Sequence record: PQ724394.1
Strand: one strand, 5' to 3'
Source of the DNA: a phage
DNA length: 64,000 nt
Shown here: positions 545 through 57,737 of the stretch, one piece after another
Position numbering within the stretch: position 1 is the first letter of the stretch
How the letters are laid out: each line of letters opens with the position of its first letter
Notes under the pieces: generated by a model
The model's input: the letters and a program-made list of their open reading frames with translations, nothing else
What the model was told of the DNA's origin: nothing
The model's database searches: none
Program-made: the position numbers and the translations under genes

Positions 545-574
545 ATAGTACCACAAGCTTCCTTGCCTGTAAAC
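545..574 (-). promoter_or_regulatory. early promoter cassette (GTTTAC -35, TAnnAT -10)
   Basis: Copy of the recurring motif GTTTAC-N17/18-TAnnAT-AGACCTATCAAC upstream of the gene starting at 519. Confidence 0.55.
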
Positions 575-1143
575 TAAAAATCCAACATTTTTAAATGAAT
601 TATTTTGTACTCGATTTCGTATGGGTCTCTTTTGATAGTTTCGATTTCCACAATCTCAAATCGTGATAGGCTAGAGACCATGAACTCACATTCGGTTTCG
701 ACCATATCATAGAGGTCAATACGGGTTTCATCTATTTCAAGTTCGTCTACATTCCCTGCAAGAACAAGGTCAATAGCGTGGTTGTAGTAGTCAAAAATGA
801 AGGGTGCATTCCTGAGACTTAAAATAGTTTTGGTTCCATATTCCCATGCCCCTGCGAACTGACGAGCCTGAGAGTATTGTGTACTAAAAGAAGTAACCCG
901 ACCAGGAGACCACTGACATCCGACAGAAAGAACTTCAAGTTGTTCAAGTTCCATAGGGGTAATCCCACGATAAAGCTCTACAGGAACGACTGAAGTAACA
1001 TGCTTACGAACTAGTTTGTCTAGGTCGTAATGGAGGTTAGGGTCTTTTTTGGCATCCAGACATTTCTCTAACAACGCTTGTTCAGATTTTGAAAATTTGG
1101 AATTGATTCGGTCTTGATAAAGGCATTTTTGTTCGATGTTCAT
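574..1143 (-). CDS. ModA/ModB-like ADP-ribosyltransferase (R-S-E type candidate)
   Basis: 189 aa; LYRG, SFSTQ and ECE motifs; tandem paralog of the upstream ORF. Confidence 0.5.
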   Translation of the reverse strand: MNIEQKCLYQDRINSKFSKSEQALLEKCLDAKKDPNLHYDLDKLVRKHVTSVVPVELYRGITPMELEQLEVLSVGCQWSPGRVTSFSTQYSQARQFAGAWEYGTKTILSLRNAPFIFDYYNHAIDLVLAGNVDELEIDETRIDLYDMVETECEFMVSSLSRFEIVEIETIKRDPYEIEYKIIHLKMLDF

Positions 1144-1198
1144 ATGACCTCCAGTGATTTAGAGGTCATTATAACACGAAGGGAAGGGTTGTAAAACT

Positions 1199-1387
1199 TT
1201 ATTTTACCCAAGGAGCCCAGGGTGGAGGGTCTTGATAGTAAGAAGCTAGGTCGGCCAGGGCATCTTTAGGCAACTTAAAGCCGTGCTTCTGTATAATCAT
1301 ATCAAGTTCATTGACAAGGTCAATAGGCGGCTCCTGAGTTGTTTCAGGCTCAGGGTCCGGAATGACGAACATATCAAATAAGTCCAT
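1199..1387 (-). CDS. hypothetical protein (62 aa)
   Basis: ORF in the minus-strand early gene series, start overlaps next gene stop. Confidence 0.35.
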   Translation of the reverse strand: MDLFDMFVIPDPEPETTQEPPIDLVNELDMIIQKHGFKLPKDALADLASYYQDPPPWAPWVK

Positions 1388-1878
1388 TAGTAACCACCGA
1401 TAGGACCATAACCATACATACGAGCTCGTAACTTAGCATCACGAATAGCTTCTTCGGTCGGGGTAAAGCGCAGGCCTATATCAAAGTGTTTCCAAATCTG
1501 ACATTCTACTTCTATAAGGTCTTCGACGGTAGAAATCAGATAAGTACGACCTTTAAGACGTTCATTGGACATTCTATCAGTATCTTTATAGAAAATATCC
1601 GTTGTTCCTTCGGCATACGGGTCCGCCGGATAACGATAGCCTTTGATATGCAAGGCTTGAGCCACACTAAAAGGGCATCCCTCAGCAACATCAACGTTTT
1701 GATTATGGCGTACTTTCATCATAACATTTTCAGGAAGATTGATATCTTTTAAGCGCGATTCTAACTGGGTGATAGAATTCATGCCGTTGTCAACAAGGAT
1801 AAGGGCAGCCGTGGCATCATAAGGACGCGTTTGACCGGATGAATCACGCACATGGAATTCTAGTTCATAAACTTTCAT
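1387..1878 (-). CDS. hypothetical early protein (163 aa)
   Basis: Long ORF, same strand as neighbours, ATGA-type coupling with the upstream gene. Confidence 0.5.
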
Positions 1879-2028
1879 TATGTTTTCCTCTTTTTAGTTT
1901 ACCTACTAAAGGGCCATCCGGAATTTTATTTTCCTGGATGTATTTCTCGTTTTCTTCCATCATTTTACTACCAATTTTAAGAAGCAAATCCATTGCCTCT
2001 TTAGTACGTGCTTCAGCTTCTTCAATAG

Positions 2029-2229
2029 TCATGATTTATCCCCATAGATATCACGCATAATCCTAAGGGCCTCGCGCTCTAATTTCTTTTCGCGCTCTTC
2101 ACGGATACCTTTAAGAATCCATTCCTCGGATTCATGTTTCATTTCTGCGTTAGCTTGGTCTAACCAACCGTCATCAAGATAATCTCCAGGACGGTCTAGC
2201 CAATCTTTAAGCCATGATAAAGGTTTCAT
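2029..2229 (-). CDS. hypothetical protein (66 aa)
   Basis: ORF coupled to 2229-2576. Confidence 0.35.
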
Positions 2230-2576
2230 TAATCACACGAGCTTGACGAAGAGTCACAGCTTCCTGAGTCAGAATAAGACGAATCGCCGGTCCAAGAACT
2301 AACGGCAGCCGCTACTACAATAGGAGTGGTATCAATATAATTTTGCCTTTGCGCTCGCTCGTCTTTTAATTTTTCTAAACGGGCCTTTAATTTGTCGGCA
2401 TTTAAGCTCGAAGCGTGAGACCCAACATTGCCTGCTTTTTCAGGCTGACGGATAACTTCTTCCATCATACCGTCACCCATATAAACATATTCTCTTAGCT
2501 TGACATCTGAAGGCCTGATAGGGACCATGCCTTCACCTGGTTTAGTCTTGAAAAAATTCTTAAGCCAATTAATCAT
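2229..2576 (-). CDS. hypothetical protein with Ser-rich C-terminus (115 aa)
   Basis: ORF; C-terminal SSYSDSGSCDSSSSSCD low-complexity tail. Confidence 0.4.
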   Translation of the reverse strand: MINWLKNFFKTKPGEGMVPIRPSDVKLREYVYMGDGMMEEVIRQPEKAGNVGSHASSLNADKLKARLEKLKDERAQRQNYIDTTPIVVAAAVSSWTGDSSYSDSGSCDSSSSSCD

Positions 2577-2782
2577 AGGAAACCTCGTTTAAATTCAACT
2601 TTATCAATATCATCGGTCTCGTGACGGATTTCGGCGTTAAATTCGATAGAACCGTCTTCATGCATCATAAATGAATGGACAATAACTTCGGTATACCAAG
2701 GAGTATAGAAGTACTTTTTCAATACGTGATTAGCGATAATTTCATCCAAAGTTTTATTTGGTTTAATCCAACGATTTAACAT
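2573..2782 (-). CDS. hypothetical protein (69 aa)
   Basis: GAGGAG RBS upstream of ATG at 2782; early promoter cassette immediately upstream. Confidence 0.45.
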   Translation of the reverse strand: MLNRWIKPNKTLDEIIANHVLKKYFYTPWYTEVIVHSFMMHEDGSIEFNAEIRHETDDIDKVEFKRGFL

Positions 2783-2808
2783 AGTGTTCTCCTCTATAAG
2801 ATACGTCT

Positions 2809-2838
2809 ATCTTAACATGGTCTACTCGTAAAGTAAAC
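2809..2838 (-). promoter_or_regulatory. early promoter (GTTTAC-N18-TAAGAT)
   Basis: -35 GTTTAC at 2833-2838 with -10-like hexamer; upstream of gene 2573-2782. Confidence 0.5.
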
Positions 2839-2848
2839 TACTAAAACG

Positions 2849-2870
2849 AAAAAAGGAACCCGAAGGTTCC
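2849..2870 (-). terminator. intrinsic terminator
   Basis: GGAACC-TTCG-GGTTCC hairpin followed by T-run on the minus strand, after soc. Confidence 0.65.
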
Positions 2871-2876
2871 TTATAA

Positions 2877-5980: not shown

Positions 5981-6266
5981 CTGTCACCTCTTTAACAATA
6001 TTTTTGTTATCGAAATTAGCATCACAGTACAGAACATAGTTATACTGCATAACACCACTGGAAGCCAATTGGTCAGATACTTCTTTAACCATATCAGGAC
6101 GGTCGCGTTTAGTGATGTTCATGATATCAGCGTAAATCTGATGTTCAACTGACTCTTGGTCTGCAGTCATAGACCATTCACAAAGGTCTTTATCCAATCC
6201 AGCTGTAACCGGAGCTGTGCCACATGATGCTACTGTAAGGATTGCTGCGATTAATAACTTTTTCAT
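5973..6266 (-). CDS. sp: spackle periplasmic protein Sp (61.3)
   Basis: 97 aa with signal peptide; strong similarity to T4 Sp as I recall it (DKDLCEWSMTADQ...VMQYNYVLYCD); early promoter cassette upstream. Confidence 0.7.
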   Translation of the reverse strand: MKKLLIAAILTVASCGTAPVTAGLDKDLCEWSMTADQESVEHQIYADIMNITKRDRPDMVKEVSDQLASSGVMQYNYVLYCDANFDNKNIVKEVTGE

Positions 6267-6294
6267 TTTTAACTCCTCATTAGTGGATAGGTCT

Positions 6295-6324
6295 ATAGTA
6301 TCACTACCATAGACCGTTGTAAAC
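6295..6324 (-). promoter_or_regulatory. early promoter cassette
   Basis: Full conserved motif copy upstream of sp. Confidence 0.65.
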
Positions 6325-6910: not shown

Positions 6911-7240
6911 TTAGATTTCCTCACAGAAGGCCCATTCAGCGTGATAAACCGTAGCGCCTTTGGTATCATTTAAACAAACCACATCTACCGGAGCAATTAC
7001 ACGATAAAGACGAGGTTCTCCTCCCACTGAACGAGCTGCTCGTCCAGCATAAATCTTAGCCAAACCAATATCCTCAGTAAAGAACACACGGTTCAGGTTT
7101 TTCTTACGACCGGTTTCAGACAGAACTCCTGTTTCCTCAGGAGGACAAAGCATATTACCAATATTAGCAAAACTACAACTTCCGTGATAATACACTTTAT
7201 ATTCTGCTTTACAGTCGATGGTTTTCATTTTGTTCTCCAT
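6911..7240 (-). CDS. hypothetical protein; candidate Arr-family (H-G-S) mono-ADP-ribosyltransferase
   Basis: 109 aa; YYHGS at residues 17-21, downstream FFTED and PVD; early promoter cassette upstream; extra gene between dmd and 41 relative to T4. Confidence 0.5.
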   Translation of the reverse strand: MENKMKTIDCKAEYKVYYHGSCSFANIGNMLCPPEETGVLSETGRKKNLNRVFFTEDIGLAKIYAGRAARSVGGEPRLYRVIAPVDVVCLNDTKGATVYHAEWAFCEEI

Positions 7241-7253
7241 TAGTTGATAGGTC

Positions 7254-7283
7254 TATAGTATCATGCCTACAGGAGAAGTAAAC
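7254..7283 (-). promoter_or_regulatory. early promoter cassette
   Basis: Full conserved motif copy upstream of 6911-7240. Confidence 0.65.
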
Positions 7284-7292: not shown

Positions 7293-7313
7293 AAAAAAAG
7301 GAGCCGAAGCTCC
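7293..7313 (-). terminator. intrinsic terminator after gene 41
   Basis: GGAGC-TTCG-GCTCC hairpin plus T7 run. Confidence 0.7.
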
Positions 7314-8753
7314 TTAAAATTTGATAGATGCTGCTAAATCGTCTAAATCGCTTCTATTAACACGTGACTGGCGATTGACCTCTGCTTGGCGGTTCATTTC
7401 ACCTGTGGCCTCACGAACAGTGTTCACTGGGCCTGGGTTAGAATCGTCTTCAACTTCATACCAACGTTGGTTTCCTTTCTTAACACCAATCTTAAATTTG
7501 TTGTAGTAGCTCTTATCGCCATAACGAGATTTAAGCTGCTTAATCATCTGCATACCCATCTGAGCAAACTCTTCTGTCTCGACCACACCTAACATGAAGT
7601 CTGCAGTATGTGCAATACCAAAGGATTCAGCGATATCAGCCATATCGATTTCGGCCGCAACGTTCGCACCACGAGTAGTCTGGGCTGCTGTCCATAGCAA
7701 TAATTTCTTCTCTACTGCAAGACCACGTAGTTCTTCGGCAACCATCTTAATCAATCCGTAACTGTTTTCAGAGAAAACTTTCGTACGGGATGAAGCACAG
7801 ATAGCCAAGTAGTCGACGATAACGACCTGTGGGACAAAGTTTTGTTTGAGCTTGTATTCGTTTAATAATGCACGGAATGTATCGGCATTAGCACCACCAG
7901 TAGGATATTGTTTAATCTTTAAACGACCTAAAGTAGCAGTTGAACGCCACTTATCCATCTTAGCTTTATATTCAGGCCATGAGACGTGACCATCGTCAAT
8001 ATCATCCAGTGATACATCTAGAAGGTTGGCATCGATACGCTTAGCACATACTTCCTCTGCCATCTCCATGGAGATATAAAGAACATCATAACCGGATTGA
8101 AGGTAATCAGCAGCCAATGAACACAGTCCAAGAGACTTACCTACGTTTGTTCCTGCCAACAATACGTTTTCAGTACCAAACTCAGCGCCACCCTTGGTAA
8201 TCTTATTCAGAATATTAAGACGGAATGGAACCTTACGGGCTTTATCAGAATAACTTTTAAAACGTTCTTCATAGTCATCCATCCAGTCATGGCCTAATTC
8301 AGAATCGAAACAAATCGATAATGCATCTCGCATGATATCCGGAATGGCACCAATACCTGGGAGTTTTCTATTTTGTTGCTCAACCGGAAGGTCGGCATTA
8401 GTTTGAATTTCAATAATTTTTGAAGTGGCATTATACATCGCTGCCTTCTGAACATATTTCTCTGTCTCTTTAACCAACCATTCTTGGTCTTCAGGGCCTG
8501 CATTCAGAGAATTTAAAAGCTCTTTAGCTCCTTGATGTTCAACTTCTGAAAGGGTGCTGTTATCTAATGCAATACTCAAAGCATTTTTAGAAGGCACCGC
8601 ATTATATTCATTGACATGTTTTTTGATTTCTTTGAAAAGGGTCTTTGCCGGACCCTGGTCAAAATAAGAATCATTCATATAAGGCCAGACCTTAGTGAAA
8701 TAATCACTATTGCCTAGCAGTTGAGCCAAAATAGTTTCTACCACTTCCACCAC
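7314..8753 (-). CDS. 41: replicative DNA helicase (DnaB-like)
   Basis: 479 aa; Walker A GTNVGKS; N-terminus matches T4 gp41; hairpin terminator immediately downstream. Confidence 0.95.
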   Translation of the reverse strand: MVEVVETILAQLLGNSDYFTKVWPYMNDSYFDQGPAKTLFKEIKKHVNEYNAVPSKNALSIALDNSTLSEVEHQGAKELLNSLNAGPEDQEWLVKETEKYVQKAAMYNATSKIIEIQTNADLPVEQQNRKLPGIGAIPDIMRDALSICFDSELGHDWMDDYEERFKSYSDKARKVPFRLNILNKITKGGAEFGTENVLLAGTNVGKSLGLCSLAADYLQSGYDVLYISMEMAEEVCAKRIDANLLDVSLDDIDDGHVSWPEYKAKMDKWRSTATLGRLKIKQYPTGGANADTFRALLNEYKLKQNFVPQVVIVDYLAICASSRTKVFSENSYGLIKMVAEELRGLAVEKKLLLWTAAQTTRGANVAAEIDMADIAESFGIAHTADFMLGVVETEEFAQMGMQMIKQLKSRYGDKSYYNKFKIGVKKGNQRWYEVEDDSNPGPVNTVREATGEMNRQAEVNRQSRVNRSDLDDLAASIKF

Positions 8754-15191: not shown

Positions 15192-15424
15192 TGTTTAACG
15201 ATAATGATTTGTGCATTTGATTTACGTTCAGCGACGATAGCCCAGATTAAAGCCACTACCCAACCAATCATCGTCCATCCTAACAGGAGATTAAGGAAGA
15301 AGATTCCGACATTGCTACGGGTGCCTCGCAGAAGAGCCAGAATCCATGGTAAAAAGTAACCAATGAACATAATAAACAGAGAACCGAATCCTAAAACACC
15401 AGCACTAACGATTAAAGCTTCCAT
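15188..15424 (-). CDS. imm: Imm-like superinfection immunity membrane protein
   Basis: 78 aa, two hydrophobic helices; conserved position between 42 and 43; early promoter cassette upstream. Confidence 0.6.
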   Translation of the reverse strand: MEALIVSAGVLGFGSLFIMFIGYFLPWILALLRGTRSNVGIFFLNLLLGWTMIGWVVALIWAIVAERKSNAQIIIVKQ

Positions 15425-15454
15425 TATAATTTCCTCATGTAGTTGATAGGAAGG

Positions 15455-15484
15455 ATACTACCACGTTCCATGTGGTATGTAAAC
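15455..15484 (-). promoter_or_regulatory. early promoter (GTTTAC-N18-TAGTAT)
   Basis: Upstream of imm. Confidence 0.6.
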
Positions 15485-27100: not shown

Positions 27101-27430
27101 TCATTTCGCAGCCTTAACAATTTTCAGGTCAACGAATTTTTTCTTACGTTGATTCTTCATACGACGGATGGTTTTGTCTGTAATTTCACCCGGCTGCCAA
27201 GCTTTAGATTCGACACCAAAGGCGGCAACATCAAACTCGTCGAGAATATATTGAACCAGGATTTCACGAATACCGTTCTTACCAATTTTTTGGTCTTTAG
27301 AGTGCATAATTGGTAACAGTTCAGCAACCCATTGGTCAAGAACCTGAGGAGTTACAAAGCCGGTTTTCATCAGTTCGTTAACTTTATCGAAAGCGAAAGA
27401 GTTCAGTACGTTTTTAATAGCTTGTGACAT
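27101..27430 (-). CDS. hypothetical protein (109 aa)
   Basis: ORF; early promoter upstream; shares a 26-nt initiation region with gene 34022-34867. Confidence 0.45.
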   Translation of the reverse strand: MSQAIKNVLNSFAFDKVNELMKTGFVTPQVLDQWVAELLPIMHSKDQKIGKNGIREILVQYILDEFDVAAFGVESKAWQPGEITDKTIRRMKNQRKKKFVDLKIVKAAK

Positions 27431-27469
27431 AATAATTTCCTCAGTTTAAAATTTATAATCCGTGGGGCC

Positions 27470-27499
27470 ATTATACTCTGGTCCCAAGAGTTTGTAAAC
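27470..27499 (-). promoter_or_regulatory. early promoter (GTTTAC-N18-TATAAT)
   Basis: Upstream of 27101-27430. Confidence 0.55.
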
Positions 27500-28562: not shown

Positions 28563-28590
28563 AATGTTCTCCTCATGTGTTGATAGGATA

Positions 28591-31772: not shown

Positions 31773-32779
31773 TTCAACAGCTCCAGAGCCTGTTCAAGAC
31801 GGTCTAAACGATTGGTAGACTCTTCCCAAAGTTTCTTGGCAGCGGTATATTGGCCAGTCAGTTTTTTGTTAATAGCCAAGGCATCTTTATACGCTTTTTC
31901 TAAGGCAACGATTTCCGGTAACTTGGATTTAGTAATTGGTGTATGGGCCATGATAGGGCTGTTCAAGTCGTTAATCAAGTCTTCTAATGTAGCAGGCTCT
32001 TTATCAGTATTCACAATTTCCTCACATTTTTCTTGGTAAATTTCAGCGTCAGTTTTTGGAACAGGCCATTTGATTTCGCGAACTGTTACTAAAACTTCAT
32101 ATCCTTTCCAGCCTAAGTGGTGTTTAACTTCTTGGGTCTCATATTTCTCTACTGTATCCATCAAAGCTAAGGCTTGTTCGATAGTATTCAAGGTATCGTA
32201 AGCAATATCTTGATACTTTACAACTTCCGCATCATCTTTAGGTTTCCAACTAGGTGACCAAATAACAGAAATAATAGCTTTTCCTTTATAACTATTTGTT
32301 TTAATCATGCAATTAGCCATCGGGTGAATAGTACGACAATCACCGGAAACTATAGTTTTAGAGGCCGCTTTGAGAATTAATGCAGAGTTAGCCTTGAATT
32401 CGCTAACCCAACGTTGCGGAAATAAACTACTAGGGTCCATACCTTTAATTTTGACATAATCTTTTATGGTATCACCAAACCATTTGTAGCTAACAACATG
32501 GTTAGAACCCGGATATTTCTCTTTACCGAACTCAGAAAGGATGTCCTTATTGACCAGTCGAGAAAGCAGTCGAGAACCTTTAAATGTATCTACGATATCA
32601 GGAATAAACAAACGACCCGCTATCTTTTCGATTTCAGCTTTGAAACAGCGCGATAATGCATCATCAATTTGGTCGACCCATTTATTGATATTAGAAACTA
32701 TTACCACATATGGGGTTAATGGAGGGGTTTTGTCAGTGATATACTTAGTAAAGGCATTAATGTATTCAGTACGGGTCAT
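31769..32779 (-). CDS. hypothetical protein (336 aa)
   Basis: Long ORF; start at ATG 32779 with GAGGAG RBS; early promoter cassette upstream. Confidence 0.55.
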   Translation of the reverse strand: MTRTEYINAFTKYITDKTPPLTPYVVIVSNINKWVDQIDDALSRCFKAEIEKIAGRLFIPDIVDTFKGSRLLSRLVNKDILSEFGKEKYPGSNHVVSYKWFGDTIKDYVKIKGMDPSSLFPQRWVSEFKANSALILKAASKTIVSGDCRTIHPMANCMIKTNSYKGKAIISVIWSPSWKPKDDAEVVKYQDIAYDTLNTIEQALALMDTVEKYETQEVKHHLGWKGYEVLVTVREIKWPVPKTDAEIYQEKCEEIVNTDKEPATLEDLINDLNSPIMAHTPITKSKLPEIVALEKAYKDALAINKKLTGQYTAAKKLWEESTNRLDRLEQALELLK

Positions 32780-32807
32780 GATATTCTCCTCAGTAGTTGA
32801 TAAAAGG

Positions 32808-32837
32808 ATTATACTCCATCCGTCCTTGGATGTAAAC
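32808..32837 (-). promoter_or_regulatory. early promoter (GTTTAC-N18-TATAAT)
   Basis: Upstream of 31769-32779. Confidence 0.6.
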
Positions 32838-34930: not shown

Positions 34931-35455
34931 TTATGCGAGAACCGTCTTTAAACGCTCTTCAAATTTCTGAAGCAGAGCTTGGCGTTCAGCTCGTTGTGAT
35001 TTGTACTGCTCGATACGACCTGAAGTGAGGGCGTACTGTTCGTTTACTGATTCCCGCATAAATTCAGGAATCTCTTTACAAGCTTTGATTTCGTCAAACT
35101 TATCAATAACTGCTTGTTGTTCAGCAATCAAGTTATCGAAATAAGCGATATCTGATTTAACGTTTGCCAGGTCAGATTCAGTAGGCATTAAACGTTTATT
35201 ACGCTCGGCTTGATAAGCTTGGTTGGTTTCACGACTCCAGTGAAGAGTACGTTTTTTGTTGGTGTTTTTATAGAGCTCTACAATACCAACTGAATCGATT
35301 ACAGCAATCCAGTTCCAACGGCTTTTGTAAATCTCTCCTCCAGATACGGTAATCTCATTACCACAAGCAACATCATTAAAGAACTTGCTTTGTTTTTCAG
35401 ATTTGAAATTACCATTGTTAAAATTAATCAGTGAAAAAATATCTTTAGCGTTCAT
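34931..35455 (-). CDS. hypothetical protein (174 aa)
   Basis: GGAGG RBS; early promoter cassette upstream. Confidence 0.5.
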   Translation of the reverse strand: MNAKDIFSLINFNNGNFKSEKQSKFFNDVACGNEITVSGGEIYKSRWNWIAVIDSVGIVELYKNTNKKRTLHWSRETNQAYQAERNKRLMPTESDLANVKSDIAYFDNLIAEQQAVIDKFDEIKACKEIPEFMRESVNEQYALTSGRIEQYKSQRAERQALLQKFEERLKTVLA

Positions 35456-35480
35456 GATAACCTCCAGTAGTTGATAGGTC

Positions 35481-35510
35481 TATAGTATCATTTCTACTGG
35501 AGATGTAAAC
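35481..35510 (-). promoter_or_regulatory. early promoter cassette
   Basis: Full conserved motif copy upstream of 34931-35455. Confidence 0.65.
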
Positions 35511-35864: not shown

Positions 35865-36845
35865 TTATTTCAGAAGTGTAACTTCAGCGATTTCGCTCCA
35901 GTCATTTTTATCGGTGGCAATGAAGTCCGCCAGATAAAGAGCCGTACGCAATGATACGTTACGAAGACGAGATACATTAGCCTTCATCCATGCTAAAGCT
36001 TGATAAGTCTCAGCATCAGTCAGACCTCGGTTTTGCATCATATCAGTGGACAGGATAACGTCTTCAACACGAACCATAATCTCTTCGTTCGAGTGAACTC
36101 CGAGGTCCAAGTAAACTGAACGAGATACTAAAGCCTGGAGGTGCGGAGCAAGTTTAGTACCACGTTCTAATTCACGGTCAATATCAACGTTGGTGATGAA
36201 CACGATGGTGCCTTCGTATTCGAATTCTTTATCGATATTTTTATCATCGAGATAAGAACTTGAAGTGCTCCAGCACACCTTACGTTTCTCTCCTGTATCC
36301 AACGCCGCTTTAAGAAGGTTCAGGATATCCATGTCAGAGAATACATCAACATCATCAATAAGAAGAACACTATTAGGGCCGCGGTTATTCCAAAGCTGCT
36401 CGTAAAGACCGATTCCACTAATCTTTCCGTTGATTGATTTATATTCGATAGTTTCATTTTCGTGGGCATTTTGTAATGCTTTATCCAAAGAGTATGTTTT
36501 ACCAATACCTGCGGCACCGGAGATGATAAGGGAACGAATTTTACCATCGATGATTCCGTTAGTCATCATGTTCATTACTTTAAAACGTTTGTTGATGCGG
36601 TGTTTCATTTCTTCGGCGGATTCAGTAATCACCGCAGGAGCTTCGGCACCTTCCATTTCGATGTCACATTTGAACACCCATACACCACGTTCAACACCAT
36701 CAATCTGTACAAATACCTTACCATCACCGAGATGAGCTTCGGATTCATGAATTTTATTAGGGAACCAGGTTTTACCTGAACTCATGAACGTACCAGAGAT
36801 TTCATTACCACGATAGATACCTTTGTTGATTTTGATAGTTAACAT
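35865..36845 (-). CDS. AAA+/P-loop ATPase
   Basis: 326 aa; Walker A GAAGIGKT, Walker B LLIDDVD, sensor FITN. Confidence 0.6.
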   Translation of the reverse strand: MLTIKINKGIYRGNEISGTFMSSGKTWFPNKIHESEAHLGDGKVFVQIDGVERGVWVFKCDIEMEGAEAPAVITESAEEMKHRINKRFKVMNMMTNGIIDGKIRSLIISGAAGIGKTYSLDKALQNAHENETIEYKSINGKISGIGLYEQLWNNRGPNSVLLIDDVDVFSDMDILNLLKAALDTGEKRKVCWSTSSSYLDDKNIDKEFEYEGTIVFITNVDIDRELERGTKLAPHLQALVSRSVYLDLGVHSNEEIMVRVEDVILSTDMMQNRGLTDAETYQALAWMKANVSRLRNVSLRTALYLADFIATDKNDWSEIAEVTLLK

Positions 36846-36881
36846 TTTATTCTCCGTTTAACTCAGTAGATTTGATAGGTC

Positions 36882-36911
36882 CATAATAACATGCTCTACG
36901 AGAGTGTAAAC
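36882..36911 (-). promoter_or_regulatory. early promoter (variant cassette)
   Basis: GTTTAC at 36906-36911, variant spacer; upstream of AAA ATPase gene. Confidence 0.5.
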
Positions 36912-36930: not shown

Positions 36931-36953
36931 AAAAAAGGACCCCGAAGGGTCCT
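36931..36953 (-). terminator. intrinsic terminator
   Basis: GGACCC-TTCG-GGGTCC hairpin plus T6 run. Confidence 0.7.
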
Positions 36954-39655: not shown

Positions 39656-39892
39656 TCACCAGTATTTGTTGATAGTAGAAATTAATTCTTGGGCTTGAGT
39701 GGTCTTCAGCTTACACCCACAACCCTTTAATGTGTCTTTAAGGAGCCATGGTTCCTTGAGCTCGTCCTTTTCTAGGCGAATTCTGTACCCTCGGTAGTCA
39801 GCAAATATACTTCGGTCGTCGAATATCTTAATCTCAAGGAGGTGGTTATTGATTTCGTATTCCAATGAAACCGTAGTACTTGTAAGTTTCAT
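39656..39892 (-). CDS. hypothetical protein (78 aa)
   Basis: Early promoter cassette upstream. Confidence 0.45.
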   Translation of the reverse strand: MKLTSTTVSLEYEINNHLLEIKIFDDRSIFADYRGYRIRLEKDELKEPWLLKDTLKGCGCKLKTTQAQELISTINKYW

Positions 39893-39919
39893 ACTGTTCT
39901 CCTCATTAGTTGATAGGTC

Positions 39920-39949
39920 TATAGTATCACGTTCCTAGAGGATGTAAAC
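39920..39949 (-). promoter_or_regulatory. early promoter cassette
   Basis: Full conserved motif copy upstream of 39656-39892. Confidence 0.65.
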
Positions 39950-39956: not shown

Positions 39957-39984
39957 CGAAAAAAGGTCCCACCGAAGTGAGACC
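39957..39984 (-). terminator. intrinsic terminator
   Basis: GGTCTCAC-TTCG-GTGGGACC hairpin plus T-run. Confidence 0.65.
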
Positions 39985-39989
39985 TTTGA

Positions 39990-43729: not shown

Positions 43730-44188
43730 TTAAAGATAGATTACTTTCGTGCTGGTTTTACCTTCTAAACGTTTAGAGTTAACAAATGCCATACGACATT
43801 TTAATGAATATCCTTTATCAGGATGTTTACGATCTACGGTCATACCCAACCATAAGGTTTTATCGGTAATCTCGAGACGCAGTGGACGATACACCTTACC
43901 TGGAATAATTTCAGATTCTACGTCAGGAAGAGGCTCCTGGATTAAAAATTCATGGATTTCTTTAACATGATTGTGGAGCTTCTTGAACAAAGAGAAAACA
44001 TATTTTTCGTCAATTTCACGTTGGATAGCACGGTCCAACAAGTGATTAGAGTACTTAATAAAGAAAGCTGGGACCCCGCTCTTAATGGCGGCTTTTTTGA
44101 TGGACGCGTTAAGTTCACGAAATTCGGTTTCGAACTGACGACGTAATTTGTTGCGGCGGATGAATACTTCTGAATTAATTTCTGACAT
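43730..44188 (-). CDS. regB: RegB endoribonuclease
   Basis: 152 aa from MSEINSEVFIRRNKLRR; strong similarity to T4 RegB; the longer frame runs into the promoter cassette. Confidence 0.85.
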   Translation of the reverse strand: MSEINSEVFIRRNKLRRQFETEFRELNASIKKAAIKSGVPAFFIKYSNHLLDRAIQREIDEKYVFSLFKKLHNHVKEIHEFLIQEPLPDVESEIIPGKVYRPLRLEITDKTLWLGMTVDRKHPDKGYSLKCRMAFVNSKRLEGKTSTKVIYL

Positions 44189-44215
44189 TTTGTAATCTCC
44201 TGTAGTTGATAGGTC

Positions 44216-44245
44216 TATAGTACCACGTCTACAGGAGATGTAAAC
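44216..44245 (-). promoter_or_regulatory. early promoter cassette
   Basis: Full conserved motif copy upstream of regB. Confidence 0.65.
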
Positions 44246-45704: not shown

Positions 45705-46064
45705 TTAAAGATGGTCAAGTGCTGGGTTGTGAGGTTTTTCTGCTTTAGTAGTGTTTTTGTGCCAATCTGATTTAGAGACACGAATTGCATCAGCGCCATA
45801 AGAACTCTTAAGGATGCCTTTTTTATTGTACACACTTACTGAAGTAAGAGAATCACCGTTCCAAGTAGCATGGACGAAGTTGGATTTAGATTTAAGCTCT
45901 TTAGCCAGGCTCTGATTAGTAGCCATAGAAGCAAAATCTTTACCCGTAACTTTAAAGACTTCAGACGGGTTCAGGCCTTCTTTAGCCTTAGCCAACTGTT
46001 CAGGCGACATACCTTCATTAATGCGTTGGGTAGATTCTGTAATAAATTCTTGATAAGTTTTCAT
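45705..46064 (-). CDS. internal-protein-like head protein with capsid targeting leader
   Basis: N-terminus MKTYQEFITE|S matches the T4 internal-protein leader with prohead-protease site after Glu10. Confidence 0.55.
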   Translation of the reverse strand: MKTYQEFITESTQRINEGMSPEQLAKAKEGLNPSEVFKVTGKDFASMATNQSLAKELKSKSNFVHATWNGDSLTSVSVYNKKGILKSSYGADAIRVSKSDWHKNTTKAEKPHNPALDHL

Positions 46065-46106
46065 ATTATTCCTTAAGTTGATAGAAGTATTCTATCACGG
46101 ATTTAA

Positions 46107-46523
46107 TTAAGCGTAAATAGCCTTGCCATAGTGTTTGTACCAGGTAGGACGTTGTGCAATTTTTTCATCCAAACGGGCTTGTGAAATAGCGATAGAAGCT
46201 TCGTGAGGAACATAATCACCACGGAATTCCTGAGGAATATCACTAATGTCCTGGACTGTAGTATCCTTGATATTAAAGCCACGTTTTAAACATTCAGCTA
46301 TAAGCTCAATTTGACGCTTACGTAAAAATTCAAGCTTATCATAAAAGAATGTAACATGGCCCGTACCAAGTATAAAAGTAGGGCTGATTTTAAAATCACG
46401 AACACGTTTACCGTTAGCAACATGCTTACGAACCGCACCGAAAACACGTGGTAATTCACGGTATTCAGCCATTAAGTGTTGGTCAGCCAATTCAGATACT
46501 AAGGTAAGGTTGATACGAGTCAT
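46107..46523 (-). CDS. denV: endonuclease V (pyrimidine-dimer DNA glycosylase)
   Basis: 138 aa; essentially identical to T4 DenV as recalled ([29 protein letters not shown]). Confidence 0.95.
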
Positions 46524-46548
46524 TTTAATCTCCTGTAGTTGATAGGTC

Positions 46549-46578
46549 TATAGTATCATGCCTACTGGAGATGTAAAC
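46549..46578 (-). promoter_or_regulatory. early promoter cassette
   Basis: Full conserved motif copy upstream of denV. Confidence 0.65.
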
Positions 46579-49063: not shown

Positions 49064-49276
49064 TTACTTTTTGTTGAAAAAGTACATTTTACCTTTAGGG
49101 GATAAGGATACACGAAGTGCGTTACCGATACCAACTGAACATTTAACCAGGTCGGCAGATTTCAATTCACCAAATGCTTGACGAAGGTCACCGTCACGAG
49201 TGTTAACCATCAGGCATTTAGCACCAGCTGCACGAACTTCGTTTAACATGTTTATTGCTTGGTTAGAAAGTTTCAT
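49064..49276 (-). CDS. hypothetical protein (70 aa)
   Basis: ATG at 49276 with RBS; the longer frame runs into the promoter-like motif. Confidence 0.4.
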   Translation of the reverse strand: MKLSNQAINMLNEVRAAGAKCLMVNTRDGDLRQAFGELKSADLVKCSVGIGNALRVSLSPKGKMYFFNKK

Positions 49277-49307
49277 TTTATTCTCCATTTCACTCTGTTG
49301 TTTTGAT

Positions 49308-49342
49308 AGGTCTATAGTATCACACCTATAGACCTTGTATAC
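49308..49342 (-). promoter_or_regulatory. promoter-like cassette variant (-35 GTATAC)
   Basis: Conserved GATACTATAGACCTATCAAAAC segment with degenerate -35; upstream of 49064-49276. Confidence 0.4.
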
Positions 49343-50314: not shown

Positions 50315-50516
50315 AATATTTTCCTCATTAATAAAGACGAGTTACTTCATATTTACCCAGTTCAGATTTTTTTGCTTCAATACGCGTTGCGGCTAGATTA
50401 GCAGCCTCTAGTGAAGAAAATTGGACCACTTGGGAAGTATTCTGCCTTACGCCACCTTGTGGGTGAGTAACAAAAACAATAAGAACATTATACATAATAT
50501 TTTCCTCAGAGTAAAC

Positions 50517-53351: not shown

Positions 53352-53945
53352 TTACTTAAGTGAATTGATGTAGTCTTCGATATCGGCTGAAGTCGTATCC
53401 ATTCCAACTTGAGGGCCTTTAAACGTTTCTACACGCATCAGTGTATCTTCAATATCAATCTTAGTCAGTGCAGCGATTTCAACAACGTCATCAGCAGTAG
53501 CAATACCAAGGGCGGCCATATTACGAGTTTCACGGATGTACTCGAGCTTAACGGCCAGTTCCTGACGAGAGTCATCAAGTTCCTTGACCTTCAGTTTAAT
53601 TTCATTACGCATTTCGATATAATCGTCAGCTTTCTTACGAAGTTGAGTAGCTGTACGACGATAAAGGAGGCCAAGTTTAGCATGCACCTGGACATCTGCA
53701 CCTTCTTTAATCAGTTTACGAATTTCGCGTTCTTTAGAAGCAGCCAGTTGGTCTTTTTCATTTGCCAATGCACGAATGCGTTTTTCTTCATTCACAGACT
53801 TAACATGAGCAGTCTGGAGTTCGGTAATTTTATCAATCAGGGTAGAAGCAGCTTTAGTATACTGGTCTTCGATTGACAGGTTCTGAGCCATCGCGGTACC
53901 CAGTTTAGAACGGATGAATTCAACAATTTTCTTTAAAGTATTCAT
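53352..53945 (-). CDS. coiled-coil protein, possibly PspA/IM30-like
   Basis: 197 aa from [10 protein letters not shown]; heptad-rich; GAAGGAAA RBS; early promoter (GTTTAC-N18-TATAAT) upstream. Confidence 0.45.
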
Positions 53946-53988
53946 AGTATTTCCTTCAGTCGGTTGGTATTTTGTAATCCATGAGGAC

Positions 53989-54018
53989 ATTATACCCTGT
54001 CCTCTGAGGGTTGTAAAC
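53989..54018 (-). promoter_or_regulatory. early promoter (GTTTAC-N18-TATAAT)
   Basis: Textbook sigma70-like spacing upstream of 53352-53945. Confidence 0.6.
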
Positions 54019-54020: not shown

Positions 54021-54419
54021 TTATTTCATTTTTGCGAGGCAAATTTCATTGGCTTCCCATTGAGCTTGCTTAATAATAGCTTTGGATACAGGAACCCTTT
54101 GGCCATAAGTTTTTGACGTTGAGAGAACAATATATTTGTTTGCCTCATTATGCCAACCTAGTGATTTTTCACCATGAGTACCTTTAATCACAGCTGACAC
54201 CTCAACAGAGCAACCACCATCAGAAATCTTGGTTTCTACAATCCATTCATTTCTCTCGACAGCTTCAATTTCCGATCTCCTTTTTTCTTCATACATGGCG
54301 GCCCAATCAGTTTTTGCCAAGCTGAAAGTAAGAGCTTTCTCTAATTCTTTGGCAGCTTTTTGTTGTTCGGGTGTTAATGAATTATACAACTCTTGCATTT
54401 CTTTATCTTCGATATTCAT
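54021..54419 (-). CDS. hypothetical protein (132 aa)
   Basis: ORF. Confidence 0.45.
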   Translation of the reverse strand: MNIEDKEMQELYNSLTPEQQKAAKELEKALTFSLAKTDWAAMYEEKRRSEIEAVERNEWIVETKISDGGCSVEVSAVIKGTHGEKSLGWHNEANKYIVLSTSKTYGQRVPVSKAIIKQAQWEANEICLAKMK

Positions 54420-54476
54420 TATGCTCTCCTCAAATTATAGGCTCATAATATCTCAATCATGAGCCCATGTAAACAA

Positions 54477-54740
54477 TTATTTCATATTATTGAAATAATC
54501 TTCCGCATCAAAATCGTTATCGTGATAAACTTTGGTAGACAATTTGACGTAACCTTCGGCAGCAAACATATTAACCACAACCTTTACGGTATACCATTGT
54601 CCATCATCATTACCCATTACTGCGTAAGTTTCAAATATGGGATGGTCATCACCTATAACCTTAATATCGTTAACAGTAGCACCAAATTCTTCAGGAACGC
54701 ATTTCATAAAGAAATTAAACAATTCACCGTAATTATCCAT
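54477..54740 (-). CDS. hypothetical protein (87 aa)
   Basis: ATG at 54740; early promoter cassette upstream. Confidence 0.45.
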   Translation of the reverse strand: MDNYGELFNFFMKCVPEEFGATVNDIKVIGDDHPIFETYAVMGNDDGQWYTVKVVVNMFAAEGYVKLSTKVYHDNDFDAEDYFNNMK

Positions 54741-54774
54741 TTTACTCCCCTTCACACTGTTGTTTTGATAGGTC

Positions 54775-54804
54775 TATAGTATCACGTTTAAAGGAGGTGT
54801 AAAC
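54775..54804 (-). promoter_or_regulatory. early promoter cassette
   Basis: Conserved motif copy upstream of 54477-54740. Confidence 0.6.
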
Positions 54805-54835: not shown

Positions 54836-54858
54836 CCTAAAAGGAGACCGAAGTCTCC
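54836..54858 (-). terminator. intrinsic terminator (short T-run)
   Basis: GGAGAC-TTCG-GTCTCC hairpin, T4 run. Confidence 0.5.
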
Positions 54859-54863
54859 TTTCA

Positions 54864-56169: not shown

Positions 56170-56189
56170 TTTAACCTAGGGTAACCTTG

Positions 56190-56480: not shown

Positions 56481-56482
56481 TT

Positions 56483-56558
56483 TGGTCGAGACAGTAGGGA
56501 TCGAACCTACGACCCAGGACTTAGAAGGTCCTTGCTCTTCCTTCTGAGCTATGCCTCG
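56483..56558 (-). tRNA. tRNA-Arg (anticodon TCT)
   Basis: Hand-folded cloverleaf: 7-bp acceptor stem, D arm GCTC/GAGC, anticodon loop CTTCTAA, T arm GTAGG-TTCGATC-CCTAC, CCA encoded. Confidence 0.8.
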
Positions 56559-56562
56559 TATT

Positions 56563-56637
56563 TGGCGGACATGCATGGATTCGAACCATGGACCAATTGA
56601 TTAACAGTCAACTGCTCTACCGCTGAGCTACACATCC
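56563..56637 (-). tRNA. tRNA-Asn (anticodon GTT)
   Basis: Hand-folded cloverleaf: acceptor stem with two G-U pairs, D arm GCTC/GAGC, anticodon loop CTGTTAA, T arm CATGG-TTCGAAT-CCATG, CCA encoded. Confidence 0.75.
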
Positions 56638-56641
56638 GAAT

Positions 56642-56715
56642 TGGTGGCCCTGGGTGGAATCGAACCACCATCCAGCGATTATGAGTCGCTCGCTTGACCG
56701 TCCAGCTACAGGGCC
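56642..56715 (-). tRNA. tRNA-Met or Ile-lysidine (anticodon CAT)
   Basis: Hand-folded cloverleaf: perfect 7-bp acceptor stem, anticodon loop CTCATAA, T arm GGTGG-TTCGATT-CCACC, CCA encoded. Confidence 0.75.
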
Positions 56716-56783
56716 TTAATTCTATTATGAAAGGCTCTTTGAGGGAAGAACCTTTGGTAATAGAGGGTATTAATGATAGAGTA

Positions 56784-56810
56784 ATAATATCACATAATTC
56801 TTAAAGCATA
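56784..56810 (-). promoter_or_regulatory. MotA-type promoter candidate upstream of tRNA cluster
   Basis: TATGCTTTA box, 12-nt spacer, TATTAT; oriented toward the tRNA genes. Confidence 0.35.
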
Positions 56811-57085
56811 TTAATGTAATCAAGTTTAATAGAAGCAATCTTCAAAGGATTTTTAAAGATGTCGTATTCGACCAACCCATTTTCATTTGCCGTATAAAAA
56901 GTAAAGTTAACAGAATTATAGCGTTGGCTGTTAACTTTGAGTTTAACATCGCTTGAACTACGGCCAATATTAACCTGTTGAACATCAAGCACAGCATCTT
57001 TGCCGTAATTTCGAATCAACAACTCAGCTGCAACCTGATCGGATTTATAGCCATTCTCTGGATTAGTAACCTTAACGTATAACAT
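56801..57085 (-). CDS. hypothetical protein (94 aa)
   Basis: ORF. Confidence 0.4.
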   Translation of the reverse strand: MLYVKVTNPENGYKSDQVAAELLIRNYGKDAVLDVQQVNIGRSSSDVKLKVNSQRYNSVNFTFYTANENGLVEYDIFKNPLKIASIKLDYINML

Positions 57086-57490
57086 TTAACCCTCGTCTAC
57101 AATAGTGTGGGTATTGGCATTAACAATCTGCCACCAGCCAAAACGATTAGAACCGTAAAGAGGCTTATTCTCGTTTTCTTTAATGATATCGCGCAGTTCA
57201 TCTTCAGAGAAGGCTTTAGCGATTAAATCAGTATACCCACCGCGTGGATAATAATTATCACCCGCAAACAAAAGGAAATTTACCTTTCCGGAAGGAACAT
57301 ATGCTTCCTTAGGATACTTGTTTCCTGCATGGTCTACCACTTCAATATAACGGTAAGGAATATCAGTACTTTCAACCCATTGCCATGCTGCAGCAGGGGA
57401 TTCAAAAGCATCTACACCTAAACGATTATCTTCATCTTTAGACGGATTATTTTCGTAATCCGCATATACATAATATTCAATGTTCATCAT
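57086..57490 (-). CDS. hypothetical protein (134 aa)
   Basis: ORF. Confidence 0.45.
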   Translation of the reverse strand: MMNIEYYVYADYENNPSKDEDNRLGVDAFESPAAAWQWVESTDIPYRYIEVVDHAGNKYPKEAYVPSGKVNFLLFAGDNYYPRGGYTDLIAKAFSEDELRDIIKENENKPLYGSNRFGWWQIVNANTHTIVDEG

Positions 57491-57672
57491 TCACCTTTAG
57501 AGATTTTATCCATAACGAAAGAGATTGAACCAATTAAGAATGCCACTACTAAAGAGATTGTATTCTCGGAAGTTGTAAGCAAATCCAACATGAATCCTGC
57601 AAACATACTAAAGCCAAAAGCAGTAACGGCGGCCAGTGCAGTAACATTTCTAATTAATTCACAACGTTTCAT
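57487..57672 (-). CDS. hypothetical membrane protein (61 aa)
   Basis: ATG at 57672; early promoter cassette upstream. Confidence 0.4.
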   Translation of the reverse strand: MKRCELIRNVTALAAVTAFGFSMFAGFMLDLLTTSENTISLVVAFLIGSISFVMDKISKGE

Positions 57673-57707
57673 TTTATTCTCCAATCACTCATTTGTTTTG
57701 ATAGGTC

Positions 57708-57737
57708 TATAGTATCATGCCTATAGACCTTGTAAAC
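57708..57737 (-). promoter_or_regulatory. early promoter cassette
   Basis: Conserved motif copy upstream of 57487-57672. Confidence 0.6.

Follow-up and report, generated by a model that had tools for sequence, protein, structure and literature searches.

Repeated early promoter-leader sequences of the T4 type in the early region of a JS98-like Dhakavirus

Short, related sequences recur upstream of genes throughout the 64,000-nucleotide stretch of phage DNA analysed here (the window; PQ724394.1), raising the question of what kind of element they are and what they do at these positions. The window belongs to a JS98-like Dhakavirus and, with its genes running from modA to gene 53, covers the early region known from T4; the repeats are very probably T4-type early (sigma-70, immediate-early) promoter-leader cassettes, composite elements of the same kind as the published promoter-early stem-loops (PeSLs). 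T4-like phages place a strong early promoter, a short leader and a ribosome site before their first-expressed genes, and the ~22 real copies in this JS98-like coliphage are largely ordinary because the PeSL element type is already known. A preliminary description had proposed T4-type early promoters, and the cassettes show the published PeSL anatomy, with an AT-rich upstream region, promoter, promoter-overlapping stem-loop, Shine-Dalgarno sequence (SD) and ATG, and agree with the published T4 early consensus of GTTTAC at -36 to -31, A-rich sequence at -40 to -44, and C at -3 to -1.

The motif GTTTAC-N16-19-TAYWAT matches 17 times, every match lying on the minus strand between 545-574 and 57709-57737 and all but two being intergenic, compared with 0.30 matches expected and a maximum of two among 100 dinucleotide shuffles. 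A relaxed scan, which tolerated a single mismatch in the -35 or a different TAnnnT hexamer at the -10, adds six convincing intergenic copies at 49342, 46118, 28620, 15484, 2838, and 1196, giving 23 in total and upholding the earlier count of at least 16. One copy is doubtful: the ATG of ORF 50328-50495 falls within the spacer of the match at 50487..50516 (minus strand, as are all cassettes and terminators below), the TATAAT of this match belongs to coding sequence, and both box and stem are absent, hence it is probably a chance match and probably no functional cassette. The downstream box AGACCTATCAAC occurs exactly in five copies and with at most one mismatch in nine, each time immediately 3' of the -10 hexamer. 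The copies had been called near-identical, which suits a subfamily of 10 cassettes (70% identity, with exact runs of 24–30 nt such as TGATACTATAGACCTATCAA) but not the whole set of 23, whose members average 47% identity in pairwise comparisons across 51 nt. All but one of the 23 fall outside the 7.3–27 kb block of replication genes, the sole cassette within it lying directly after the gene 43 stop, upstream of an imm-like gene (15422..15484).

Each cassette sits 0–15 nt past the stop codon of the upstream gene, with the final codons of that gene forming the A/T-rich UP region, and continues through the -35 GTTTAC, a 17–18 nt spacer ending in TGn, and the -10 TAYWAT into a conserved CCTATCAA box spanning the transcription start, which is predicted from spacing to be the A of ATCAAC. 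A leader, usually of 18–34 nt, precedes the SD and ATG, which lie 18–55 nt downstream overall. The SD is usually GGAG followed by A-rich sequence, the type cleavable by RegB, whose gene is present in the window. As the preliminary description had suggested, GGAG is frequent here, serving 17 of 23 promoter-proximal genes compared with 13 of 111 other genes (odds ratio 21, p=4e-9), and the published RegB site, GGAGRAYARAA, is matched exactly at four places in the window, all of them cassette SDs. The claim that many copies are preceded by a terminator is partly right, holding for five of the 23, with canonical terminators (GC stem, UUCG loop, T-run) found 10–35 nt upstream of the cassettes at 2838, 7283, 36911, 39949, and 54804; these lie at 2849..2872, 7293..7315 (after gene 41), 36931..36953, 39959..39987, and 54839..54860, the last being a terminator-like hairpin with a UUCG loop and a T4 tail.

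The stem-loop in the preliminary description was that of these upstream terminators, and the hallmark of PeSLs, a stem-loop overlapping the promoter, was overlooked. This stem-loop is real, and is the one that defines published PeSLs. In ~60% of copies the spacer is complementary to sequence further downstream, which may be the SD or else the -10/+1 region; in both geometries the 5' arm precedes the predicted start. Spacers pair with their own downstream sequences at a mean of -10.7 kcal/mol, compared with -7.6 ± 0.53 kcal/mol for swapped partners, with none of 20000 permutations as low. The signal replicates in 58 non-redundant promoters of other Tevenvirinae genera (z=-15), including those of Yersinia phage ZN18, Serratia phage CHI14, and Citrobacter phage CF1, and in T4 itself the stem-loop is found at regB, denV, and ipII, with the 15-bp T4 regB stem analogous to that of the window. 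Stems of -10 kcal/mol or lower are present in 58% of promoters, compared with 6–10% in direct-repeat and upstream controls, whilst eight of 22 window cassettes have weak stems only.

At regB (44186..44245) the SD is predicted to be masked by a stem of 11 perfect base pairs, ATCTCCTGTAG / CTACAGGAGAT (-18.2 kcal/mol), and upstream of nrdC.8 (35453..35510) by the 11-bp stem ATCTCCAGTAG / CTACTGGAGGT. Masking of the SD is also predicted upstream of denV (46521..46578) and of an e.8-like ORF (54738..54804). Upstream of ORF 6911-7228 (7226..7283), TTCTCC in the spacer is complementary to the SD, GGAGAA, which is an exact RegB site (GGAGAACAAAA), and upstream of 55.6 (28560..28620) the pairing is between CTCTCCTCA in the spacer and TGAGGAGA at the SD. 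Stems flanking the -10 are found upstream of sp (6264..6324; GGTCTAT / ATAGACC, -13.4 kcal/mol), 55.2 (27428..27499; GAGTATAAT class, TGGGACC / GGCCCCA), ORF 49064-49276 (49274..49342; GTATAC/TACTAT, a RegB consensus SD, and the 10-bp stem AGGTCTATAG / CTATAGACCT), e.6 (53943..54018; GAGGAC / GTCCTC), ORF 54021-54419 (54417..54474; 12 bp, -17.2 kcal/mol), and trna.4 (57670..57737; 10 bp, with a RegB consensus SD). A promoter inside the 3' end of 55.5 (27829..27922), with a 55-nt leader to 55.4 and a CGATGA / TCATCG stem, is less certain than the intergenic copies. Stems are weak at a promoter that lies in the coding sequence of 49.1 and precedes ORF 30220-30393 (30391..30463), and at the cassette of modA, a gene cut by the window edge (517..574; -35 574-569, -10 550-545, box CTATCAAC, SD GAGGAG, ATG at 519, -6.4 kcal/mol). 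The remaining cassettes lie upstream of modB (1141..1196; TTTTAC/TATAAT, SD GGAGG), mrh.2 (2780..2838; GTTTAC/TAAGAT), nrdC.4 (32777..32837), the AAA-like nrdC.10 (36843..36911; SD GGAGAATAAAA, a RegB consensus), and ORF 39656-39892 (39890..39949). A further copy, ATTTAC/TAGAAT (46062..46118), overlaps the stop codon of denV and drives ORF 45705-46064.

The position of the 5' arm suggests how such an element most likely works. Host RNA polymerase would fire the cassette promoters in the first minutes of infection, yielding RNAs whose SD would be open because the 5' arm is missing, and which would be translated and later inactivated by RegB. Read-through RNA from upstream would carry both arms, with the hairpin masking the SD or otherwise marking or attenuating the junction. 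If true, the expression of each gene would be tied to its own early promoter. Consistent with this, the SD has a predicted probability of 0.41 of being unpaired when the RNA reads through from upstream, compared with 0.60 for the cassette's own transcript (p=9e-5), with 6–8 cassettes moving from 0.25 or less to 0.5 or more; the nrdC.8 cassette moves from 0.01 to 0.48 and that of the e.8-like ORF from 0.13 to 0.67. The gain in accessibility is only modestly larger than at control genes (0.19 compared with 0.09, p=0.04). That the stem-loop might mask the SD solely in read-through RNA is an idea, and as the stem flanks the -10 and leaves the SD untouched in about a quarter of cassettes, masking cannot be its sole role.

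The stem-loops could instead be terminators or attenuators of upstream transcription, as proposed for RB49 and phi1, rather than translational masks, a reading we regard as possible but unlikely. One RB49 stem-loop reduced downstream lacZ expression as much as rrnB T1, though this assay cannot tell termination from translational or polar effects. Furthermore, among 80 stems there are 15 that flank the -10, make no contact with the SD and reach the predicted start or stop a few nucleotides from it, and another insulator would be useful since only five of the 23 cassettes have a separate canonical terminator. Against termination, the 3' arms are followed by ATCAAC or A-rich SD spacers with no U-tract, and in 22 of the 80 stems three or more nucleotides of the SD core are paired. 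Additionally, denV orthologue promoters of different genera keep the SD paired through different arm sequences and even different geometries, and the 5' arm always lies on the upstream side of the predicted start. Counting against the masking reading itself, RNAalifold detected no structure at a conserved position in a MAFFT alignment of these orthologues, a consequence of the shifting arms.

Doubtful to a similar degree is the proposal that the cassettes are primarily mobile recombination modules, with flanking genes recently acquired and with the spread and near-identity of the copies arising from cassette-mediated insertions. Two junctions do show the textbook signature of recombination: the single e|denV cassette of the window is a chimera of two JS10 cassettes that flank a 1.1-kb ipIII module, and JS10 has a small ORF between two near-identical cassettes of ~45 nt (a duplication of the nrdC.10 cassette) where the window has one. 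The e|denV junction takes at least five different configurations among relatives, paralogous leader subfamilies have the 24–30 nt exact runs in common, box similarity is slightly higher within than between genomes (0.46 compared with 0.39, p=0.001), and mini-circles have been demonstrated in RB49/phi1. Several differences from relatives lie at or next to cassettes, with a 233-bp ORF insertion ending exactly at the -35 of the modB cassette, an unrelated ORF replacing ORF 39656-39892 in CLBP2 and dhabil with its boundary at the SD/ATG, the cassette at 54417..54474 forming one boundary of a 1.09-kb segment absent from JS10, the ORF 45705-46064 module absent or replaced, and ORF 57750-58004, just upstream of the trna.4 cassette, replaced in all three full-length relatives. 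Indel or replacement boundaries touch 12 of 23 cassette junctions compared with 34 of 111 others (odds ratio 2.5, one-sided p=0.043), but this enrichment is not significant within hyperplastic regions (odds ratio 1.9, p=0.13), 34 of the 46 touched junctions have no cassette, and late promoters likewise coincide with boundaries at 3149 and 55517. Cassette junctions also have long spacers (median 59 nt compared with -1), so they would tolerate breakpoints in any case.

Whether close relatives lack the cassettes was looked at, and 20–21 occupy orthologous positions in each of the three full-length relatives, contrary to the earlier view that they mark recent insertions. Most of the genes they drive are conserved T4 orthologues (modA, modB, sp, imm, nrdC.4/.8/.10, regB, denV); the AAA ATPase once taken for an accessory insertion is nrdC.10, one of these orthologues, and the supposed Arr-like accessory gene is unsupported, with no Arr domain found among 20 cassette-adjacent proteins. 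The box recurs in T4, as does the denV cassette itself, which points to functional constraint and not to recent spread. PeSL-type shuffling is thus only partly supported, by the two junctions above but not as a general account of cassettes whose positions are conserved and whose boundary enrichment is weak. As short dispersed repeats at gene boundaries, promoter-leader cassettes probably serve on occasion as crossover points for the gain, loss or swap of small gene modules, a side effect rather than their main role.

It is highly improbable that the complementarity works at the level of DNA, as a cruciform or a site for a dimeric regulator shutting off early promoters. At several promoters the stem is a perfect inverted repeat with the -10 at its centre (for example AGGTCTATAG-N8-CTATAGACCT) and the mechanism of T4 early-promoter shut-off is unknown; however, the arms covary and differ in sequence between promoters, which leaves no shared site for a protein, and the 3' arm ranges in position from the -10 to the SD. 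Furthermore, internal G:T pairs outnumber A:C pairs 8 to 1, which points to selection on one strand (the sense strand or RNA). Chance, or an artefact of composition, has practically no standing: a generic sigma-70 scan shows no excess (61 promoter-like sites compared with 56.6 expected) and the 17 strict matches include one (50516) that seems spurious, but the motif statistics, with all matches on the coding strand, and the conservation of the sites in relatives refute it.

Among known systems, the cassettes differ in nothing of kind from the T4 early promoters (reviewed in Hinton 2010, PMC2988021; logos in Nolan 2006, PMC1524935), 'uber' promoters of the same UP/-35/TGn/-10 design, with the box CCTATCAA strongly conserved in the Dhakavirus set. 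The PeSLs of RB49/phi1 (Arbiol et al. 2010, PMC2839356), for one of which terminator or attenuator activity was shown, have the same order of parts (an AT-rich stretch holding the stop codon, then an early promoter with its -35 and -10, stem-loop, SD, ATG), a stem-loop mostly between the -35 and -10 or overlapping the -10, a concentration in hyperplastic regions, and occasional cassette-to-cassette exchange. In contrast, their -35 is TTGACA rather than the T-even GTTTAC, the window stems are not poly-G/poly-C, and many window 3' arms are the SD itself, a point absent from the PeSL papers, whose text contains neither 'sequest' nor 'translational'. The T4/PST PeSLs, described with those of KVP40/nt-1 (Comeau et al. 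2014, PMC4122927), have the consensus TTTACW-N17-TAYWAT seen here and the same polymorphic e-ipIII-ipII-denV locus, and the denV cassette of T4 is almost identical to that of the window; repeats at the IP locus of T-even phages were reported by Repoila 1994, as cited in a later paper. Whilst PMC4122927 places the stem-loops just upstream of the promoter, the statistically supported stem in the window, and in T4 by the present scan, spans the -10. The proposed masking follows a logic already established for late promoters in T4, where hairpins that contain such a promoter sequester the SD at e, soc, 49, and I-TevI (Uzan & Miller 2010, PMC3014915). These hairpins mask only read-through RNA, since their 5' arm lies upstream of the internal start, and the e-type hairpin is conserved in the window at 47070-47103. 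The internal promoter of the cassettes is instead early, with the arm in its -35/-10 spacer, a version we did not find described as a general rule in the accessible literature. Finally, the cassette SDs match the RegB/S1 target site GGAGRAYARAA (Durand et al. 2006, PMC1702504) and are predicted cleavage targets in this phage.

The recurrent promoter motif noted in the preliminary description is readily recovered, with GTTTAC-N16-19-TAYWAT occurring 17 times between 545 and 57737, on the minus strand only, compared with a mean of 0.30 in shuffled sequences. A scan that tolerates a single mismatch in the -35, or a different TAnnnT hexamer, recovers six further intergenic sites (49342, 46118, 28620, 15484, 2838, and 1196) with the same box, Shine-Dalgarno (SD) sequence, and ATG, while a generic sigma-70 consensus scan reveals no excess (61 sites vs 56.6 expected), so that the T4-specific motif alone is informative. 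The cassettes are all located on the coding strand, facing modA, modB, sp, imm, regB, denV, and others, with one in the 20-kb replication block (7.3–27 kb) and 22 in the other ~41 kb, and thus share with promoter-early stem-loop (PeSL) elements a preference for hyperplastic regions. The feature is real, statistically overwhelming, and already explained: these are T4-type early promoter/leader cassettes that belong with the PeSLs and occur here in a Dhakavirus. Their description as near-identical holds for a subfamily of ~10 copies (70% pairwise identity over 51 nt, exact shared runs of 24–30 nt) and not for all 23, where the mean is 47%, with the dodecamer AGACCTATCAAC present at ≤1 mismatch in 9 copies, each time abutting the -10. 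Two strict matches (27922 and 30463) overlap coding sequence, each falling within the 3′ end of a gene. A further strict match, 50516 (50487–50516, a perfect GTTTAC-N18-TATAAT), is probably spurious, its spacer holding the SD and ATG of ORF 50328–50495; this 55-aa ORF is removed by an exact 161-bp deletion in five relatives.

The anatomy of the cassettes is that of T4-type early (sigma-70/Alt) promoters, with a GTTTAC hexamer, a spacer of 17–18 nt ending in GTGA/GAG just before the -10, a TAnnnT -10, and a TGn/GT-rich motif upstream. An AAA run 5′ of the -35 in the consensus, where information peaks, corresponds to the A-rich UP element (-40 to -44), and as the stop codon of the preceding gene is found 0–15 nt 5′ of the -35 in most copies, this region falls inside the preceding gene. 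The ends of the cassettes likewise resemble those of PeSLs: the 5′ end is AT-rich and holds the stop codon of the upstream gene, and the 3′ end carries the SD and start codon. A CCTATCAA box is conserved 3′ of the -10, at about 1.1 bits per position over all 23 copies. Based on the usual spacing and the published preference of T4 early promoters for C at -3 to -1, we infer that transcription starts at the A of ATCAAC, the 7th nucleotide after the -10. The CCTATCAA box is common to several other Tevenvirinae genomes, with a second version (TCCTACACAAAC) in others, which identifies it as a lineage-level promoter/start element rather than a genome-specific repeat. The denV cassette of T4 (NC_000866, 65355–65413, L087; GTTTACATCTCCTGTAGGTATGATACTATAGACCTATCAACTACAGGAGA) is nearly identical to 46521–46578 of the window, a likeness far above that of the flanking DNA of both genera, and one that could reflect either strong constraint or horizontal exchange.

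Megablast of the 34–47 kb portion of the window retrieves the JS98-like phages of the genus Dhakavirus (dhabil, CLBP2, JS10, and JS98) at ~95% identity, in 8–9 pieces. According to the JS10 and dhabil annotations, the gene order is modA/modB, soc, 56, 61, sp, dmd, 41, uvsX, 43, 45, 46/47, 55, 49, nrdC, tk, vs, regB, denV, e, the tRNA cluster, 57, 1, 3, 2, and 4, all on the minus strand, followed by gene 53 on the plus strand, and the window, as judged from this order, corresponds to what is classically the early region in T4-type phages. Within the early block, just one candidate gene lies on the opposite strand, a 66-aa ORF (3905–4105, plus strand) located in the 288 bp that separate genes 56 and 61 and annotated in dhabil as dhabil_90. 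Unlike the window, dhabil carries a 644-bp homing-endonuclease gene between genes 3 and 2 (L006 12255–12905, against 60361–60363 of the window), an indel that has no connection to the cassettes. Rfam at the gathering threshold yields nothing but three tRNAs. ARAGORN additionally calls a 97-nt tRNA-Phe (aaa) at 56219–56315 on the minus strand, which has a good T-arm (CCGGGTTCGAATCCCGG), goes unrecognised by Rfam, and gives sub-threshold chance matches only in a permissive scan of 56100–56500. It lies inside a 217-bp segment missing from JS10 and JS98, and may be a tRNA that has degenerated or been interrupted.

The SD sequences of the cassettes are indeed frequently GGAG, at 17/23 cassettes compared with 13/111 other genes (p = 4e-9). 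The published RegB/S1 site GGAGRAYARAA has four exact matches in the window, all of which are cassette SDs; regB itself is encoded at 43730–44188. The cassette SDs thus match the RegB-targeted early type, and are predicted to be open in the cassette's own transcript. The hairpin terminators said to precede many copies are confined, in canonical form (GC stem, UUCG loop, T-run), to 5/23, at 2849–2872, 7293–7315, 36931–36953, 39959–39987, and 54839–54860, each on the minus strand and next to a cassette. These five share a UUCG tetraloop, a GC-rich stem, and TTTTTT(C/G)GTTTTAG-like tails, and constitute a separate, small family of repeats.

A different stem overlaps the promoter itself. Side-by-side reading of the copies reveals that the -35/-10 spacer is complementary to sequence 3′ of the -10, with stems formed by ATCTCCTGTAG and CTACAGGAGAT at 44245 (regB), AGGTCTATAG and CTATAGACCT at 57737, and GGGCTCAT and ATGAGCC at 54474. 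When each spacer was paired with its own downstream 44 nt and compared with the downstream regions of other promoters, own partners gave a mean of -10.7 kcal/mol vs -7.6 ± 0.53 for swapped partners, with 0/20000 permutations reaching the observed value and a stem of ≤-9 kcal/mol present in 14/22 window cassettes. The effect recurs in 58 non-redundant, non-Dhakavirus promoters found around the lysozyme gene in other T4-like phages, including Yersinia phage ZN18 (Tequatrovirus), Serratia phage CHI14, and Citrobacter phage CF1 (-11.3 vs -6.7 ± 0.31, z = -15). In T4 itself, the stems are -21 (regB), -17.8 (denV), and -16.8 kcal/mol (ipII). Control regions remain at background (direct repeat, -6.3; region 5′ of the -35, -6.2), and ≤-10 kcal/mol is attained by 58% of promoters vs 6–10% in controls. 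Internal non-Watson-Crick pairs are G:T in eight cases and A:C in one (p = 0.02), an excess suggesting that selection acts on the sense strand, i.e. on RNA. RNAalifold, applied to 11 denV-promoter orthologues aligned with MAFFT, predicts no consensus pairs, since the arms lack positional homology, and partner-swap permutations were used instead.

As to what the stem does, RNase III processing sites were set aside, the stems being merely 7–15 bp. Termination or attenuation is the reading given to the PeSL stem in the literature (Arbiol et al. 2010, PMC2839356; Comeau et al. 2014, PMC4122927), where SD sequestration is unmentioned; no U-tract is found 3′ of the stems described here. Among 80 promoters, the stem pairs ≥3 nt of the SD core in 22, flanks the -10 in 15, takes other forms in 11, and is weak in 32, with the 3′ arm of the -10-flanking stems ending around the predicted start, 5–10 nt past the -10. 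Whatever the geometry, the 5′ arm precedes the predicted start, and the hairpin is therefore possible only in RNA reading through from upstream. In the window, predicted SD accessibility is 0.41 for read-through RNA and rises to 0.60 for the transcript that the cassette itself would initiate (p = 9e-5), with large shifts at 54804, 46578, 44245, 39949, 35510, 28620, and 7283. The -35/-10 spacer is the sole unconstrained sequence 5′ of the start and is the site of a putative anti-SD, which is present in 25/80 promoters, with CTCC at spacer positions 2–4 in 24/25. In denV promoters SD pairing is kept across genera by different arms (AGTAG/CTAC, CAAG/CTTG, and GTTTG/CAAAC), and in some orthologues the 5′ arm lies directly 3′ of the -10 rather than in the spacer, a pattern that, from sequence comparison, would be expected from selection for SD pairing and not for a particular sequence or for termination. 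Upstream canonical terminators reveal no pattern of anti-correlation with SD-masking stems (n = 5).

It is conceivable, if somewhat short of probable, that the promoter-embedded stem of T-even early promoters acts as a general translational switch set by RNA origin, and not as a terminator. Translation and RegB exposure of a gene would then be possible only from RNA begun at its own early promoter, with the SD remaining paired in read-through, middle-mode, and late RNAs. Since RegB needs single-stranded GGAG, promoter-proximal RNA would be both translatable and RegB-sensitive, and read-through RNA neither. If true, this would provide a built-in post-transcriptional shut-off of immediate-early genes in Tevenvirinae, and would be relevant to the steep fall in early protein synthesis, which has long lacked an explanation. 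Full-text literature searches, with key older T4 papers outside their scope, returned no statement of SD masking at early promoters; older T4 work, for example Liebig and Rueger 1989, may already have noted spacer-SD complementarity. A hairpin with the same architecture is established for the late promoters at T4 e, soc, 49, and I-TevI (Uzan & Miller 2010, PMC3014915). At 47070–47103 on the minus strand, a late promoter (TATAAATA) is followed by CCTCCT...AGGAGG, which pairs the SD of the lysozyme gene e; the phage has here retained the classical hairpin that controls translation of T4 e.

The cassettes had also been proposed as gene-shuffling modules. Alignment of the window with three full-length and six 20-kb relatives reveals 20–21 positionally conserved cassettes in each full-length relative, and the same genes thus do not lack their cassettes in close relatives. 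Masked runs of ~100 nt in one contig (L013) produce false events, all within genes and absent from the junction counts. Indel or replacement boundaries touch 12/23 cassette vs 34/111 other junctions (134 gene junctions in total; OR 2.5, one-sided p = 0.043), falling to OR 1.9 (p = 0.13) within hyperplastic regions, and the longer spacers at cassette junctions (median 59 nt vs -1 nt elsewhere) by themselves favour surviving breakpoints. Two junctions show the signature expected of shuffling. At e|denV, JS10 and JS98 carry a 1.1-kb ipIII module between two cassettes, whereas the window has a single cassette whose 5′ part resembles the e-proximal copy and whose 3′ part resembles the denV-proximal copy, the crossover falling within GTTTAC(A/T)TCTCC; at nrdC.11|nrdC.10, two near-identical cassettes of ~45 nt enclose an additional small ORF in JS10. 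Cassette-mediated exchange is supported by such individual examples, but not as the principal explanation for the cassettes or for most local differences in gene content. The window (46523–46584, against JS10 L002 13360–14396) is without both the ipIII module and the accompanying ORF of JS10/JS98, and further relatives carry inserts measuring 366, 405, or 1447 bp at e|denV, where at least five configurations exist among relatives, in keeping with the polymorphism of the internal-protein locus for which the PeSL literature cites Repoila 1994.

Variable cassette-driven genes are small ORFs (39656–39892, 45705–46064, and 54477–54740). As to the other supposed accessory insertions, a Pfam scan of 20 cassette-adjacent proteins detected no Arr (rifampin ADP-ribosyltransferase) domain, and the AAA-like gene is the conserved nrdC.10, present in JS10, dhabil, and CLBP2. 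Late promoters (TATAAATA) also lie exactly at replacement or deletion boundaries, at 3149 and 55517 (also 56140), the differences being a soc-adjacent ORF swap in JS10 and a 0.7–1.1 kb segment missing in JS10 and two further relatives (L010 and L013); module boundaries thus coincide with late as well as early regulatory signals.

For annotation, the cassettes define some 22 early transcription units in a Dhakavirus, together with its RegB-sensitive genes, and the shuffling idea is tempered, with the cassettes being conserved regulatory elements and crossover points merely on occasion. The most interesting remainder is the hypothesis of the promoter-embedded stem as an origin-specific SD mask, with the genus-spanning, statistically strong pairing of the spacer with the SD or start region suggesting a simple rule, by which T4-like phages may confine immediate-early gene translation to promoter-proximal RNA.

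The finding itself is a rediscovery of known biology, namely T4 early promoters and PeSL cassettes, previously mentioned merely in passing for a JS98-like phage, with the PeSL literature mentioning JS98 for the g43 locus only. Comeau et al. 2014 (PMC4122927) extended PeSLs to T4/PST with the consensus TTTACW-N17-TAYWAT. The comparison with PeSLs made in the preliminary description was right, although it drew on the upstream terminators, and the defining promoter-overlapping stem was missed. Like PeSLs, the window cassettes have a stem-loop that overlaps the promoter, and they therefore fit the structural definition of these elements.
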